Source: a virus (lineage: Duplodnaviria > Heunggongvirae > Uroviricota > Caudoviricetes). Taken from it: a stretch of DNA of 9,601 bases. A model generated the notes under the pieces. That model saw only the letters and a list, made by a program, of their open reading frames with translations, was not told the DNA's origin and did not search any database. The stretch lies in IMG/VR virus record IMGVR_UViG_2698536337_000007; one strand, 5' to 3'. Below are positions 1,662 to 6,116 of this stretch, one piece after another (position 1 is the stretch's first letter; each line of letters opens with the position of its first letter). Position numbers and translations under genes: made by a program.

Positions 1662-2042
1662 ATGACCGAGCGCATAGAATTTGTTTTACCTTACCCGCCG
1701 ACGGTGAACACTTACTGGCGTCGTCGTGGCAGCACATATTTTGTATCAAAAGCCGGGGAGCGTTATCGCCGGGCAGTGGCGCTTATTGTTCGCCAGCAGC
1801 GGCTGAAATTAAGCCTGTCCGGAAGGTTGGCAATAAAAATTATTGCAGAACCACCGGATAAGCGCCGCCGTGACCTGGACAATATTCTGAAAGCGCCGCT
1901 GGATGCGCTGACGCATGCGGGGTTGCTAATGGACGATGAGCAGTTTGATGAAATCAATATCGTTCGTGGTCAGCCAGTATCTGGTGGACGTCTGGGGGTG
2001 AAGATTTACCCCATAATGCATGAAGAGCAGGTCAAAAAATGA
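1662..2042 (+). CDS. rusA: Crossover junction endodeoxyribonuclease RusA (Holliday junction resolvase)
   Basis: 126-aa product MTERIEFVLPYPPTVNTYWRRRG...DKRRRDLDNILKAPLDALTHAGLLMDDEQ matches the RusA family pattern (PxxxNxYxR, RRRDLDN, DALT..G...DD) as I recall it. Typical position upstream of Q; ATGA overlap with the next gene. Confidence 0.85.
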   Translation: MTERIEFVLPYPPTVNTYWRRRGSTYFVSKAGERYRRAVALIVRQQRLKLSLSGRLAIKIIAEPPDKRRRDLDNILKAPLDALTHAGLLMDDEQFDEINIVRGQPVSGGRLGVKIYPIMHEEQVKK

Positions 2043-2860
2043 AACTGGAAGATTTACCGAAATACTACTCCCCAAAATCCCCCGGCCTGACTGATGCATC
2101 GGCCTCAACGTCGAAAGATGCGCTGAGTATCACTGATGTGATGGCCGCGCAGGGCATGACACAGAATCGGGCTGAGATGGGGGTTTCTGCGTTCCTTGGG
2201 AAAATGGGCATTAGTATGAATGACAGAGAGCGGGCAACAGAATTGCTGACAGAATATGCACTCAGTCGGTGTGATCGCGTGGCGGCGTTAAGAAAACTCC
2301 CGGCAGAAATAAAACCGGCAGTGATGCGTATTATGGCTTCGTATGCGTTTGAAGATTATGCCCGTAGCGCGGCGAGCAAAAAACAGTGCCCCTGCTGTCA
2401 CGGAAAAAAATTTATTGAAAGCGAGGTTTTTACAAACAAGATCCAGTATCCGGATGGTAAGCCGCCGGTATGGGCAAAGTGTACGAAAGGTGTGTATCCG
2501 TCTTACTGGGAAGAATGGAAAAAAGTCAGGGAGGTGGTAAAAGTTGCCTGTCCGGAGTGTGGCGGAAAGGGTGAGGTTTCCACCGCCTGTAAGGATTGCC
2601 GTGGGCGTGGTGTCGCCATTCATCGTGAAGAGTCGGTAAAACGTGGTATGCCTGTTATCAGAGACTGCCAGCGTTGTGGTGGTCGTGGCTATGAAAGACT
2701 ACCATCAACGGAGGCATTTAATGCTATATGCGAGGTGACAAACCAGATAACACGCGCGTCATGGGAAAAAACAGTTAAGAAATTCTATGATGCGCTGGTG
2801 ACTCGGTTTGATATTGAAGAAGCATGGGCTGAGCGGCAGTTAAAAAAGGTAACTAGGTAA
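2039..2860 (+). CDS. Late-gene antiterminator Q candidate (large Q82/QuuQ-like size class), containing DnaJ-type CxxCxGxG zinc-finger repeats
   Basis: 273-aa ORF translationally coupled to rusA. It sits immediately upstream of a pR'-like promoter and tR'-like terminator. Cys motifs: CPCCHGKK, CPECGGKG, CKDCRGRG, CQRCGGRG. Assignment is by synteny and zinc-binding character, not by recognised sequence identity. Confidence 0.55.
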   Translation: MKLEDLPKYYSPKSPGLTDASASTSKDALSITDVMAAQGMTQNRAEMGVSAFLGKMGISMNDRERATELLTEYALSRCDRVAALRKLPAEIKPAVMRIMASYAFEDYARSAASKKQCPCCHGKKFIESEVFTNKIQYPDGKPPVWAKCTKGVYPSYWEEWKKVREVVKVACPECGGKGEVSTACKDCRGRGVAIHREESVKRGMPVIRDCQRCGGRGYERLPSTEAFNAICEVTNQITRASWEKTVKKFYDALVTRFDIEEAWAERQLKKVTR

Positions 2861-3084: not shown

Positions 3085-3282
3085 ATGCTAAAACAGCAGG
3101 ATATGACAGAAACCGCCAGAGTGGTGTTTAATGAATTAAGCGTTACCGAACCGGCGACAGTCGGGGAGATAGCGCAGAATACTTACCTTTCACGCGAACG
3201 CTGCCAGTTAATACTGACCCAGCTGGTTATGGCGGGTCTGGCAGACTATCAGTTCGGTTGTTACAGACGCCTTCCGCAGTGA
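3085..3282 (+). CDS. Small (65 aa) winged-helix-like putative DNA-binding protein
   Basis: SD aagga about 6 nt before the ATG. The segment ATVGEIAQNTYLSRERCQLILTQLVMAGLA has a helix-turn-helix-like pattern reminiscent of small PapI/FaeA-type regulators (weak, pattern-level only). The stop is embedded in a terminator hairpin. Confidence 0.45.
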   Translation: MLKQQDMTETARVVFNELSVTEPATVGEIAQNTYLSRERCQLILTQLVMAGLADYQFGCYRRLPQ

Positions 3283-3432: not shown

Positions 3433-4491
3433 ATGCTTAATACTGTAAAAATATCCAGTTGTGAGTTAATCAACGCCGACTGCCTGGAATTTATCCGGTC
3501 GTTACCCGAAAATTCTGTTGACCTGATAGTCACGGACCCGCCGTACTTTAAAGTGAAGCCTGAGGGCTGGGATAACCAGTGGAAGGGCGACGATGATTAC
3601 CTGAAGTGGCTGGACCAGTGTCTGGCGCAGTTCTGGCGGGTGCTGAAACCTGCCGGAAGTCTTTACCTGTTCTGTGGTCATCGCCTGGCATCTGATATCG
3701 AAATCATGATGCGTGAACGCTTCAGTGTGCTGAACCATATTATCTGGGCGAAGCCGTCCGGACGCTGGAACGGATGCAACAAGGAAAGCCTGCGGGCGTA
3801 TTTCCCCGCCACAGAGCGCATTCTGTTCGCGGAACATTATCAGGGGCCGTATCGTCCGAAAGATGCCGGGTATGCGGCGAAGGGCAGTGCACTGAAACAG
3901 CATGTGATGGCCCCGCTGATTTCTTACTTTCGTGATGCGCGAGCTGCCCTGGGGATAACGGCAAAACAGATTGCAGATGCCACAGGAAAGAAAAACATGG
4001 TGTCGCACTGGTTCAGTGCCGGTCAGTGGCAGTTGCCGAATGAAAGCGATTATCTGAAATTACAGGCGCTGTTTGCCCGGGTGGCAGAAGAGAAGCATCG
4101 GCGTGGTGAACTGGAAAAGCTCCACCACCAGCTGGTGGATACGTATACCTCACTGAACCGGCAGTATGCGGAGCTGCTGAGTGAATATAAACATCTGCGG
4201 CGGTATTTTGGCGTGACGGTGCAGGTGCCGTATACCGATGTGTGGACGCATAAACCGGTGCAGTTCTATCCCGGGAAACATCCGTGCGAAAAACCGGCAG
4301 AAATGCTGCAGCAGATAATCAGCGCTAGCAGTCGTCCGGGTGACCTGATTGCAGATTTTTTCATGGGGTTGGGTTCGACAGTGAAAGCGGCACTGGCGCT
4401 CGGGCGTCGTGCAATTGGCGTTGAGCTGGAGACTGAACGTTTTGAGCAGACGGTTCGGGAAGTACAGGATTTAGTCAGCCAGAACGGATGA
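3433..4491 (+). CDS. Orphan DNA amino-methyltransferase (N6-adenine or N4-cytosine), beta-class motif order
   Basis: 352 aa. Catalytic DPPY motif near the N-terminus (DLIVTDPPYF) and SAM-binding FxGxG-type motif near the C-terminus (ADFFMGLGST). No restriction endonuclease partner is visible in the window. Confidence 0.85.
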   Translation: MLNTVKISSCELINADCLEFIRSLPENSVDLIVTDPPYFKVKPEGWDNQWKGDDDYLKWLDQCLAQFWRVLKPAGSLYLFCGHRLASDIEIMMRERFSVLNHIIWAKPSGRWNGCNKESLRAYFPATERILFAEHYQGPYRPKDAGYAAKGSALKQHVMAPLISYFRDARAALGITAKQIADATGKKNMVSHWFSAGQWQLPNESDYLKLQALFARVAEEKHRRGELEKLHHQLVDTYTSLNRQYAELLSEYKHLRRYFGVTVQVPYTDVWTHKPVQFYPGKHPCEKPAEMLQQIISASSRPGDLIADFFMGLGSTVKAALALGRRAIGVELETERFEQTVREVQDLVSQNG

Positions 4492-4531: not shown

Positions 4532-4607
4532 GGCCCTTTAGCTCAGTGGTGAGAGCGAGCGACTCATAATCGCCAGGTCGCTGGTTCAAATCCAGCAAGG
4601 GCCACCA
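4532..4607 (+). tRNA. ileZ: tRNA-Ile2 (anticodon CAU, lysidine type; formally CAU could also be Met)
   Basis: Cloverleaf folded by hand: acceptor ggccctt/aagggcc, anticodon loop ctCATaa, T-loop ttcaaat, encoded CCA. Close to my recollection of E. coli ileX. Symbol given by positional analogy to the Stx-phage ileZ-argN-argO arrangement. Confidence 0.85.
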
Positions 4608-4614
4608 TCACATA

Positions 4615-4691
4615 CCGCCATTAGCTCATCAGGAAAGAGCGCCAGCCTTCGAAGCTGGCTGCGCGGGGTTCAAGTCCCCGATGGCGGTCCA
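4615..4691 (+). tRNA. argN: tRNA-Arg (anticodon UCG)
   Basis: Acceptor ccgccat/atggcgg (C1:G72), D-stem gctc/gagc, anticodon stem ccagc/gctgg with loop ctTCGaa, T-arm cgggg-ttcaagt-ccccg, discriminator t, encoded CCA. Confidence 0.8.
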
Positions 4692-4704
4692 TTATCTGCA
4701 TTCA

Positions 4705-4781
4705 GCGTTGTTAGCTCAGCCGGACAGAGCAATTGCCTTCTAAGCAATCGGTCACTGGTTCGAATCCAGTACAACGCGCCA
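4705..4781 (+). tRNA. argO: tRNA-Arg (anticodon UCU, reads AGA/AGG)
   Basis: Acceptor gcgttgt/acaacgc, anticodon stem attgc/gcaat with loop ctTCTaa, T-arm actgg-ttcgaat-ccagt, encoded CCA. Confidence 0.85.
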
Positions 4782-4795
4782 CACTTATTTTCCCT

Positions 4796-4821
4796 GGCTC
4801 GCTTTTGCGGGCCTTTTTTTT
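4796..4821 (+). terminator. Intrinsic terminator after the tRNA cluster
   Basis: Stem ggctcgc / gcgggcc (one G-U pair), loop tttt, followed by 8 T. Confidence 0.55.
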
Positions 4822-5193
4822 AAATGTCTCACAATTCAGACGGTTGACAGTTGTCTGTTTTGCGGGGAGTTTGTTAAAAGAAACTGGCATGGTGAATCCC
4901 CCTGTGCGGAGGGGCAATCAGCGAGTAGGTATATGGGATAATCGCGGATTCAGGTGCTGGTACTGAATTCACCGGGAGGCACCCGGCATCATGCANNNNN
5001 NNNNNNNNNNNNNNNNNNNNNNNNNNNNNNNNNNNNNNNNNNNNNNNNNNNNNNNNNNNNNNNNNNNNNNNNNNNNNNNNNNNNNNNNNNNNNNNNNNNN
5101 NNNNNNNNNNNNNNNNNNNNNNNNNNNNNNNNNNNNNNNNNNNNNNNNNNNNNNNATAGCGCCACTCTCCAGCCCTCTCCGGAGGGGCTTTTC
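4821..5193 (+). repeat. Copy A of a duplicated structured element (candidate small RNA: promoter-like TTGACA, internal hairpins, terminator-like 3' end); interrupted by a 160-nt N-run
   Basis: 4831-4995 is about 97% identical (4 mismatches in 165 nt) to 5893-6057. TTGACA at 4844-4849. Terminator-like hairpin agccctc..gaggggct at 5171-5189 followed by tttt. Confidence 0.65.
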
Positions 5194-5360
5194 TGTGCCG
5201 GATACATCACAGTTTCTGGAACCTTAGGTACTACAGTATCAGTCAGGGTGCTATATTTTCAGATGTGATGAAAGCCTGTCAGCAGGCAGGNNNNNNNNNN
5301 NATGTTTGTCAAAAATAAAAGTTCTGTTAAGTATTGATTGAGTGTTTGTTATACGGTCTA

Positions 5361-5687
5361 ATGGTTTTTTCAGCATTAAATATTTATCATTCATATGGTG
5401 TGGGTAGAGTGAATATTGATGAGGCGTCGGGGTGTTTCATCCTTAGGCAGCGTATTGATATAGTCAATGCAGCACGAGCAAAGGCCTTCAGCCGTTTGAC
5501 AGTTTTGTTCTGTACTCCTGATCGTCTTTCGGGAAGAGACGTTATTATTCTGAATAGTGATGCTATACAGAGGGTTTGCGATGAGTTCATGGTTGCTAAT
5601 TCAGAATTATTTGCTCTTGTTCAGGAGTACAACAGAATAGCCAGGACCTGTGGTATGGATGAACTTCGGATTACTCATCTGGGGTAG
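5361..5687 (+). CDS. Hypothetical protein (108 aa from the ATG at 5361; ORF track opens at the TTG at 5334), cargo ORF in the stx slot
   Basis: Longest ORF in the unique segment between the two repeat copies. It contains 3 AGA, 3 AGG, 3 ATA and 1 CGA codons, matching the adjacent tRNA set. Weak SD; no recognisable family. Confidence 0.35.
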   Translation: MVFSALNIYHSYGVGRVNIDEASGCFILRQRIDIVNAARAKAFSRLTVLFCTPDRLSGRDVIILNSDAIQRVCDEFMVANSELFALVQEYNRIARTCGMDELRITHLG

Positions 5688-5883
5688 ATACATATCTGGA
5701 TTATCACCTGTTACGGTAAAAAGTGATTGCTTACTGTTTTTGTGAATGGCATTGCAGCAGCCGGATAATGTCAGTGCTGGCTGACGGTGTGCTGGTGGCG
5801 GGTGTGGTGGTTGTTGCTTTCCCGTTGCTGAAAAAGAAAACGCCAGACTGTTAGCCGGGTATCAGTTAGCGGGAGAAATTTTT

Positions 5884-6116
5884 AAATACTTCACAATTCA
5901 GGCGGTTGACTGTTGTCTGGTTTGCGGGGAGTTTGTTAAAAGAAACTGGCATGGTGAATCCCCCTGTGCGGAGGGGCAATCAGCGAGTAGGTATATGGGA
6001 TAATCGCGGATTCAGGTGCTGGTACTGAATTCACCGGGAGGCACCCGGCACCATGCAATGGCACATAGCGCCACTCTCCAGCCCCTCTCCGGAGGGGCTG
6101 TTTATATTGATTTTGT
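5884..6116 (+). repeat. Copy B of the duplicated structured element (candidate small RNA), uninterrupted
   Basis: TTGACT at 5906-5911; hairpins cccct..agggg (5961-5976) and ccggg..cccgg (6034-6048); terminator-like 8-bp stem agcccctc/gaggggct (6080-6099) followed by the U-rich tail gtttatattgattttg. Confidence 0.65.

Follow-up and report, generated by a model that had tools for sequence, protein, structure and literature searches.

Does a short open reading frame rich in host-rare codons, lying just downstream of phage tRNA genes that read these same codons, owe its sequence, or even its recognition as a gene, to those tRNAs? This question is raised by a 108-codon frame at positions 5361-5687 of a 9,601-nucleotide stretch of caudoviral DNA (IMG/VR record IMGVR_UViG_2698536337_000007), hereafter the window. 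A preliminary description made from the sequence alone had proposed that the frame is a real and phage-adapted gene, on the strength of the match between its rare codons and the neighbouring tRNAs.

The prophage region and its cargo slot

Scans for open reading frames, tRNAs and profile matches identified the window, parts of which are masked by four runs of N, as part of a lambdoid E. coli prophage, namely its late-regulatory region, with the following features:

603-1661: DUF968/NinG-like gene
1662-2042: RusA
2039-2860: Q antiterminator, PF03589 type
3085-3282: 65-aa ORF
3433-4491: N6/N4 DNA methyltransferase
4532-4781: three tRNA genes, detailed in the next three lines
4532-4607, plus strand: tRNA with anticodon CAT, tRNA-Ile2 (ileZ-type) (ARAGORN; Rfam tRNA, 72.5 bits)
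4615-4691, plus strand: tRNA-Arg(UCG), cognate to CGA/CGG (ARAGORN; Rfam, 58 bits)
4705-4781, plus strand: tRNA-Arg(UCU), cognate to AGA and also AGG (ARAGORN; Rfam, 70.1 bits)
4796-4821, plus strand: terminator-like hairpin and T-run directly 3' of the tRNA cluster, a putative terminator (consensus scan)
4858-5195 (3' end approximate), plus strand: STnc100 sRNA, copy 1 (Rfam RF02076, 94.9 bits; terminator hairpin 5171-5189), including a mask of 160 N at 4996-5155
5361-5687, plus strand: flagged ORF as first read, 108 sense codons
5361-5408, plus strand: first 16 codons of that reading, probably a non-coding 5' leader
5409-5687, plus strand: 92-codon gene of the phrog_2873 family (PHROG match, clade conservation, AlphaFold2)
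5723-5854, plus strand: DUF3927/TciB-like small protein of 43 aa, downstream partner of the 92-codon gene (Pfam PF13064, E = 1.7e-27; phrog_1470; PGAP 'DUF3927 family protein')
5920-6109, plus strand: STnc100 sRNA, copy 2 (Rfam RF02076, 132.4 bits; terminator hairpin 6079-6100)
6135-6470, minus strand: AT-rich IraM-family anti-adapter gene (NCBIfam NF007393, 162 bits for a cut-off of 121; PGAP 'anti-adapter protein IraM' in the relative L014)
7134-8987: nanS-p-like SASA esterase
9060-9353: P21-type holin

The three tRNAs announced by the preliminary description were thus recovered by ARAGORN and Rfam, 0.6-0.8 kb upstream of the ORF. The identical CAT tRNA is labelled tRNA-Ile by PGAP in the relatives L001, L009 and L014, and tRNA-Ile2 reads AUA once modified with lysidine. 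Together, these phage tRNAs match codons that the host seldom uses, with relative synonymous usages in its core genes of 0.07 for AGG, 0.12 for ATA, 0.15 for AGA and 0.22 for CGA. Downstream of the cluster, a direct repeat of 192 nt has one arm at 4804-4995, covering the 5' part of the first STnc100 copy, and the other at 5866-6057. No consensus promoter was found upstream of the 92-codon gene by a scan of the window, in which hits were no more numerous than in shuffled sequence, and the next terminator 3' of the gene is that of the second STnc100 copy. For the neighbourhood of the gene, a published RIBOseq study of EHEC reports the STnc100 RNAs only (PMC5331693).

The succession of Q, tRNA(Ile2, Arg, Arg), cargo, nanS-p-like esterase and holin defines a cargo region of the Stx-phage type. 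In Stx2a, Stx2c and Stx2d phages, the corresponding region reads q, tRNA 'Met'(=Ile2)/Arg/Arg, stxAB, nanS-p and lysis genes (PMC7366253). The window resembles it by its Q-type antiterminator, its three tRNA species, its cargo slot and the order of the nanS-p-like esterase and holin, and the slot between the Q/tRNA cluster and the esterase-lysis genes is the one that holds stx in Stx2a-type phages. It differs by a Q of the PF03589 type, by the N6/N4 methyltransferase inserted between Q and the tRNAs, and by its cargo, which is composed of the 92-codon gene, the DUF3927 gene, STnc100 and the IraM-like gene in place of stx: no ORF between 4782 and 7133 matched Shiga toxin, the cargo ORFs of this interval being those of phrog_2873, DUF3927 and IraM-like type.

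Coding status and start of the gene

The flagged ORF is a real gene, as initially proposed, on grounds that are independent of the codon match, namely the conservation of its frame among diverged homologues. Its product is a full member of phrog_2873, with a match over the whole profile (positions 1-108 of 108, E = 3.8e-70), and identical sequences of both 108 and 92 aa have already been deposited in GenBank/UniRef as hypothetical proteins of E. coli or Shigella (e.g. UniRef A0A136WL65_ECOLX). Besides the lineage of the window (clade 1), a search of 5.8e9 proteins recovered a second clade at 54-60% identity, and a third one corresponds to the 92-aa hypothetical protein WP_001017777.1, annotated by PGAP. 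These three E. coli clades share 68-72% nucleotide identity over 279 nt (92 codons), with zero indels and with common positions for the GTG start and the stop. Their differences are distributed over the three codon positions as 24/22/43, 19/19/39 and 24/19/40 (P = 0.005-0.013), third-position changes being about twice as many as the others, and dN/dS reaches 0.26 across clades. At larger distances, searching 1.84e9 cluster representatives with a profile returned 19 matches in all, including distant relatives of 91-95 aa (33-41% identity; E. coli, Citrobacter and metagenomes) that aligned from residue 1. Within clade 1, the gene is intact in all 74 close loci, with 5 synonymous and 5 non-synonymous variants that are too sparse to inform on selection. 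A tblastn search of 50,697 phage records found the gene in a single phage, mEp460_ev081.

Two reverse-strand ORFs overlapping the region, at 5387-5590 and 5251-5394, were considered as candidate genes and rejected, since the substitution pattern fits the plus-strand frame. The ORF at 5251-5394 is called as a gene in the mEp460 record.

Several observations could nonetheless be read as signs that the frame is open by chance in AT-rich cargo DNA between genes. RefSeq carries no PGAP annotation at the clade-1 ORF in any of the matches listed, the complete E. coli genomes that match numbering more than 1,200; the Shine-Dalgarno (SD) pairing is weak; Pfam, NCBIfam and PADLOC gave no match for the 92-aa protein; and the other frames of the segment are similar in rare-triplet density. 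Such an origin is extremely improbable, and we consider it effectively refuted by the conservation among clades and by the distant relatives: frame, length, start and stop are kept at ~70% nucleotide identity, with the third-position bias and dN/dS reported above, homologues extend down to 33% identity, the predicted fold is confident, and PGAP does annotate the clade-3 orthologue. Judged from these sequence comparisons, the interval 5409-5687 is a genuine prophage accessory gene.

By contrast with its coding status, the start initially assigned to the ORF, ATG 5361, is most likely wrong. All clades and distant relatives begin with V/M-N-I-D-E or an equivalent where the window has GTG 5409, and the product therefore most likely comprises 92 aa and not 108, being shorter by 16 codons. 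Upstream of this GTG, clades 1 and 2 can be aligned only with indels of 2, 2 and 3 nt, the stretch is either out of frame or interrupted in the clade-2 loci L007 and L009 (with a stop in L009), and clade 3 shows no similarity to clade 1. Predicted pairing with the anti-SD sequence is also stronger at GTG 5409 (-4.5 kcal/mol) than at ATG 5361 (-2.4) or at TTG 5334 (-0.9); among four relatives tested, the corresponding start gives -6.9 to -8.3 kcal/mol in L010, L011 and L012 and -2.8 in L007. The indels relative to clade 2, the lack of clade-3 similarity and the weaker SD argue for 5361-5408 being a probable leader rather than coding sequence.

A longer product restricted to this lineage, of 108 aa from ATG 5361 or of 117 aa from TTG 5334, would agree with longer frames that stay open in all 74 close loci, with gene callers often giving versions of 108, 117 or 118 aa, with the 108 positions of phrog_2873 itself and with the in-frame extension of a few clade-2 variants (P0014, P0015). 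We nevertheless hold it to be quite improbable, because the extension shows no conservation at the protein level (indels relative to clade 2 break the frame, L009 has a stop, and clade 3 is unrelated in sequence), while the distant relatives all start at the GTG position and SD pairing is weakest at the two upstream starts. Moreover, only two variable sites occur in the extension among 26 clade-1 haplotypes, and its open frame therefore says little. With GTG 5409 retained as the most likely start of the conserved gene, a start would be fixed for a small gene that is widespread (over 1,200 complete E. coli genomes matched) and, among the matches listed, absent from RefSeq annotation.

Rare codons against composition and across the family

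The codon counts of the preliminary description are exact, the 108 sense codons of 5361-5687 including 3 AGA, 3 AGG, 3 ATA and 1 CGA (9.3%), of which 2 AGA, 3 AGG, 3 ATA and 1 CGA fall in the 92-codon core (9.8%). The backbone comparison it had suggested as a check also revealed a clear excess, since six backbone ORFs of the window hold 40 of these codons in 1817 (2.2% vs 9.3%; Fisher P = 4e-4). The density in the flagged ORF is 4.4 times that of the backbone genes and ~15 times that of host core genes, where the four codons represent 0.66% (31 genes and 9096 codons from one E. coli chromosome). This excess over the backbone is due to a high content in Arg and Ile (19 of the 92 residues of the core) combined with the use of AGA/AGG, which encode 5 of 10 Arg in the gene vs 14 of 111 in the backbone (P = 0.009); the share of ATA among Ile codons does not differ (3 of 9 vs 21 of 86; P = 0.69). 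Host-rare codons that are not read by these tRNAs (TTA, CTA, ACA, AAG, GGA, GGG) are not enriched, with 6.5% in the gene vs 7.7-10.3% in the six backbone genes.

Measured against composition, the rare-codon count does not exceed expectation (P about 0.05-0.18). A mononucleotide null predicts 7.2 of these codons in 108 vs 10 observed (P = 0.18), shuffling of the nucleotides gives 6.7 +/- 2.4 (P = 0.12), and a codon-position-specific null yields P = 0.06. For the 92-codon core, a synonymous-choice null, in which the protein is kept and synonymous codons are drawn from the third-position composition of the ORF itself, predicts 5.8 vs 9 observed (P = 0.08). In addition, the five remaining frames of this segment contain 8, 4, 5, 15 and 4 of the four triplets vs 10 in the flagged frame, which is largely the comparable density in non-coding frames that the preliminary description had named as the mark of a mere composition effect; its coding claim survives on frame conservation. 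Because the count lies within composition and the other frames reach 4-15, the codon match brings no evidence of coding, and it fails as the proof of a real ORF for which it was first put forward. The lesson extends to AT-rich ORFs in general, in which a match between rare codons and tRNAs is unusable as coding evidence, non-coding frames giving an equal signal.

The segment has a GC content of 42-44%, and the 92-codon gene one of 44% vs 49-53% in backbone genes. These backbone genes avoid the four triplets in frame (2.2% vs 4.7-5.1% over all frames), whereas the flagged gene displays no such avoidance (9.8% in frame vs 5.6-6.0% over all frames in the cargo region). The notion of a phage-adapted codon usage does not hold either, the index of adaptation to host core genes being 0.475 for this gene vs 0.59-0.68 for the backbone, alongside its lower GC. 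As a comparator from the same cargo, the IraM-family gene contains 6 ATA and zero AGA/AGG in its codon table.

Across the family, the CGA of codon 23 is the only rare codon conserved in all three clades, and the invariant Arg15 and Arg29 are encoded by CGT in every clade. The AGA/AGG codons of the window gene occur where the family sequence varies, the residues of the other clades at these sites being Leu, Gln/Lys, Asn/Lys or Gly/Ser, and codon 76, of the AGA/AGG class, is common to the window gene and clade 2. Six of the nine rare codons are specific to the lineage, five of them at sites of amino-acid replacement. Such a pattern is the one expected from ordinary replacement at fast sites of an AT-rich gene, rather than from the conservation of rare codons. 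Eight lineages of the family could be compared, with rare-codon counts of 9 (the window), 5, 6, 3, 7, 3, 1 and 5 vs 6.2-9.6 expected. When pooled, they total 39 observed vs 62 expected, and the family overall therefore avoids these codons. The lineage of the window is the only one of the eight that stands above expectation, with an observed/expected ratio of 1.45 vs 0.12-0.97 (P = 0.007 at the family ratio, post hoc), and it has 5 AGA/AGG codons vs 0-3 in its relatives. An AT-rich composition of the same kind is also found in relatives that have none of these tRNAs close by.

Lambdoid morons, following the concept of Hendrix and Juhala, are extra genes of deviant composition located between backbone genes. 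We consider it probable that the 92-codon gene is an ordinary moron lodged in a Stx-type cargo slot, with rare codons that come from composition and a sequence that needs no tRNA match to be explained. Like morons, it is variably present between similar backbones and has a deviant GC content (44% vs 49-53%). The same slot is elsewhere occupied by tciA-tciB in JLK-2012, by an AraC-type regulator together with the clade-2 gene in L007 and L009, and by the clade-3 gene alone in L010. It would depart from them in that no consensus promoter of its own was found in the window, and a clear terminator hairpin comes after it in clade 3 only (L010). The rare codons would then have three sources, namely (i) a foreign, AT-rich composition, (ii) an Arg/Ile-rich sequence and (iii) a choice among codons that is under weak selection, AGA and AGG being located at fast-evolving positions (Lys, Gln, Asn, Ser, Gly or Leu in relatives) and the invariant Arg residues being encoded by CGT.

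tRNA linkage, neighbours and predicted product

The association between the gene and the tRNAs was followed in 80 IMG/VR loci carrying clade-1 copies that are 98-99% identical. In ~75 of these 80 loci, tRNA-Arg(UCU) ends 186-188 nt before the GTG, and this fixed spacing implies that tRNA-Ile2, tRNA-Arg(UCU), the gene, DUF3927 and STnc100 travel as a block. tRNA-Arg(UCG) was not detected by ARAGORN in 78 of the 80 loci (it is present in L032 and L052), five of these 78 having upstream sequence too short to judge; in L001, its copy is disrupted. Outside clade 1, the distribution is contrasted: tRNA-Ile2 and tRNA-Arg(UCG) lie 2-3.6 kb upstream of the gene in L003 and L009, the gene is downstream of tRNA-Thr in L011, L095 and L096, and none of the three tRNAs occurs within 4.7-5 kb upstream in L007 and L010.

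The three tRNAs are able to read these codons and accompany the gene and DUF3927 as one block in this lineage; in the ordinary-moron reading, such co-travelling tRNAs probably make the rare codons cheap to translate. The tRNAs ileZ-argN-argO of phage 933W were reportedly proposed, in the paper describing its genome, to serve the rare codons of phage genes. Lambdoid phages frequently carry tRNAs downstream of Q, and the idea that phage tRNAs compensate for host-rare codons has been cited for those located there in SfI, Sf6, ST64T and P21 (PMC3636060). In agreement with this idea, the tRNAs of the window match host-rare codons, whose frequency rises from 0.66% in host core genes to 2.2% in the prophage genes and 9.8% in the flagged gene. 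It differs in that the excess is here within composition and not frame-specific, and relatives devoid of such tRNAs are similar. As a sign of adaptation, the codon-tRNA match is suggestive and does not amount to a proof.

An alternative would be that the tRNAs did shape the codons, either because the co-inherited tRNA-Ile2 and tRNA-Arg(UCU) lifted selection against AUA, AGA and AGG, or because translation of the gene became tied to the phage tRNA supply. It draws on the sole lineage of eight above compositional expectation being the one fused to tRNAs (9 rare codons vs 1-7; post hoc P = 0.007), on its surplus of AGA/AGG not being matched by other host-rare codons, and on the constant position of tRNA-Arg(UCU) in most loci. 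Local clusters of rare codons, such as AGA-ATA-GCC-AGG at codons 76-79, and the lack of a visible terminator-like hairpin between tRNA-Arg(UCU) and the gene in L001 point in the same direction. This signal comes, however, from one lineage, was obtained post hoc and concerns an ORF that was flagged because of its high count, a count itself within composition and equalled by non-coding frames. Furthermore, the copies of this lineage are 98-99% identical and therefore represent one evolutionary event. Clade 2 also argues against such an influence, its codon content being unchanged with tRNAs (L003, L009) or without them (L007), as does the single CGA, conserved everywhere although tRNA-Arg(UCG) is undetected in most clade-1 loci. 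Lastly, tRNAs act in trans, several prophages of this kind are often present in one E. coli strain, and in the window the terminator-like hairpin and one copy of STnc100 lie between the tRNAs and the gene. Altogether, we regard drift or gating driven by the tRNAs as unlikely, the lineage-specific signal giving a weak indication of relaxed selection in the presence of co-resident tRNAs.

In its most elaborate form, tRNA-Ile2, tRNA-Arg(UCU), the 92-aa gene and DUF3927 would constitute a co-inherited and possibly co-transcribed unit, in which the tRNAs license a protein rich in AGA, AGG and AUA codons that is made efficiently only when the prophage tRNAs are expressed. The outlier codon content of the lineage and the fixed 186-nt spacing would be the traces of this gate. 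We judge this scenario very improbable; if true, it would offer a testable instance in which a single cargo protein is controlled by phage tRNAs. Beyond annotation hygiene, the importance of the locus otherwise appears to be little.

Returning to the ordinary moron gene that we favour, its 92-aa product is predicted to form a soluble antiparallel two-helix hairpin. The AlphaFold2 model, built on the profile-search alignment, has a mean pLDDT of 88.3 and a pTM of 0.75, with helices at residues 3-34 and 50-81 joined by TPDRxSG, the most conserved segment of the family. Foldseek searches of PDB and BFVD retrieved generic antiparallel coiled-coil hairpins only (the EmrA hairpin, prefoldin beta and HR1; best E-value 0.06), and no function was drawn from the fold. 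A profile search of PDB sequences likewise gave no match. With low confidence, the product may be a small accessory protein of mobile elements, cytoplasmic and shaped as a helical hairpin, that probably binds another protein.

The gene neighbourhood, the sole lead to a function, places this small uncharacterised helical-hairpin family repeatedly in the virulence-cargo slot of lambdoid prophages, beside TciB-like and IraM-like genes. In clades 1 and 2 the gene adjoins a DUF3927/TciB-like gene and lies upstream of it, and in clade 3 it has no DUF3927 partner. This arrangement recalls the TciA/TciB module of JLK-2012, where tciA-tciB occupies the equivalent slot after the phage's own tRNAs; the window gene is likewise directly upstream of its TciB-like neighbour, but the 92-aa family has no sequence relationship to TciA/TerB. 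Kinship with these proteins was indeed considered and rejected (hhalign probability < 1%). In a Citrobacter relative with 39% identity, the gene lies upstream of a TerB-like gene and DUF3927, just before the holins, and more distant members of the family adjoin fimbrial or type IV pilus operons.

Repeat arms and STnc100 copies around the cassette

The 92-aa gene (clade 1, phrog_2873 family) and a small partner form a cassette flanked on both sides by the arms of a long direct repeat, recovered by a repeat search, which contains the 5' part of the small RNA STnc100.

Cassette and flanking elements (window coordinates)
4804-4995 and 5866-6057: direct repeat, 192 nt, 93% identity
4858-~5195 and 5920-6109: STnc100 copies 1 and 2
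5723-5854: DUF3927/TciB-like gene, 43 aa, starting 35 nt past the 92-aa gene

None of the 80 related IMG/VR loci, which carry near-identical clade-1 copies of the gene, has an STnc100 copy upstream of it, and the majority possess the downstream copy only, so that the two-copy bracket of the window is atypical. Recombination between the repeat copies could lead to gain or loss of the cassette. The first copy is further interrupted by one of four N-masked stretches.

N runs in the window
4996-5155: 160 nt
5291-5301: 11 nt
6772-6894: 123 nt
9431-9498: 68 nt

The run at 4996-5155 falls within copy 1, and the corresponding stretch of copy 2 measures just 7 nt; copy 1 therefore holds about 150 additional, masked bases. 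STnc100 has been linked to PF03589-type Q genes (bioRxiv 10.64898/2026.05.13.724894), and its 11 copies in EDL933 are abundantly transcribed (PMC5331693). On our reading, STnc100 may represent the terminated leader of the late promoter. A related locus from E. coli O43 RM10042 (L009) displays five STnc100 copies within one prophage late region (5639-6618 and 3668-3880), four of them in a head-to-tail array immediately 3' of its clade-2 homologue.

The pairing with DUF3927 recurs in a Citrobacter relative, whose protein is 39% identical to the 92-aa protein and where a TerB-like gene lies between the two, which suggests that such small genes make up a module that recurs immediately before the lysis genes.

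Annotation of the 92-aa gene

Among the matches listed, drawn from more than 1,200 complete E. coli genomes, no clade-1 or clade-2 row had a RefSeq PGAP feature under the 92-aa gene, as exemplified by two related loci, L001 (5608-5886) and L014 (~3470-3750). The clade-3 orthologue does have a PGAP annotation (WP_001017777.1). The pattern suggests that a gene evolving under purifying selection has been systematically passed over in annotation. Within its coding sequence, at window 5523-5541, a hairpin and an adjoining 3' T-rich tract resemble a terminator, probably by chance.

Neighbouring cargo and late-region genes

Downstream of the cassette, the opposite strand encodes an anti-adapter of the IraM family.

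IraM-family gene
6135-6470 (-): IraM-family anti-adapter ORF, 111 aa, 34.5% GC (NCBIfam NF007393, phrog_4407)

Its product scores 162 bits against NF007393 (cut-off 121), PGAP gives its L014 counterpart the name 'anti-adapter protein IraM', and its codons include 6 ATA and no AGA or AGG. The IraM anti-adapter inhibits RssB and thereby stabilises RpoS; judged by its family identity, this prophage cargo gene could thus alter the host stress response.

Further downstream, the stretch at window 7124-7174, which carries the ribosome-binding site of the nanS-p-like esterase and its opening codons (MAFKHYDVVRAA...), has a duplicate with 84% identity at 6721-6771, 403 nt upstream. As the upstream duplicate continues into the N mask at 6772-6894, we read it as probably a truncated DUF1737 gene fragment, matching one annotated by PGAP in L014.

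The Q antiterminator (PF03589, window 2039-2860) has a second profile match to the DnaJ CXXCXGXG zinc-finger, which may be the reason why the Pas sRNA preprint (bioRxiv 10.64898/2026.05.13.724894) terms STnc100 neighbours 'Fels-1 prophage chaperone'.

Finally, the middle tRNA of the cluster, tRNA-Arg(UCG), receives no ARAGORN call in L001 and most other related loci. Compared with the intact copy retained in the window (4615-4691), the L001 counterpart (5254-5335) preserves the tRNA ends around a scrambled centre.
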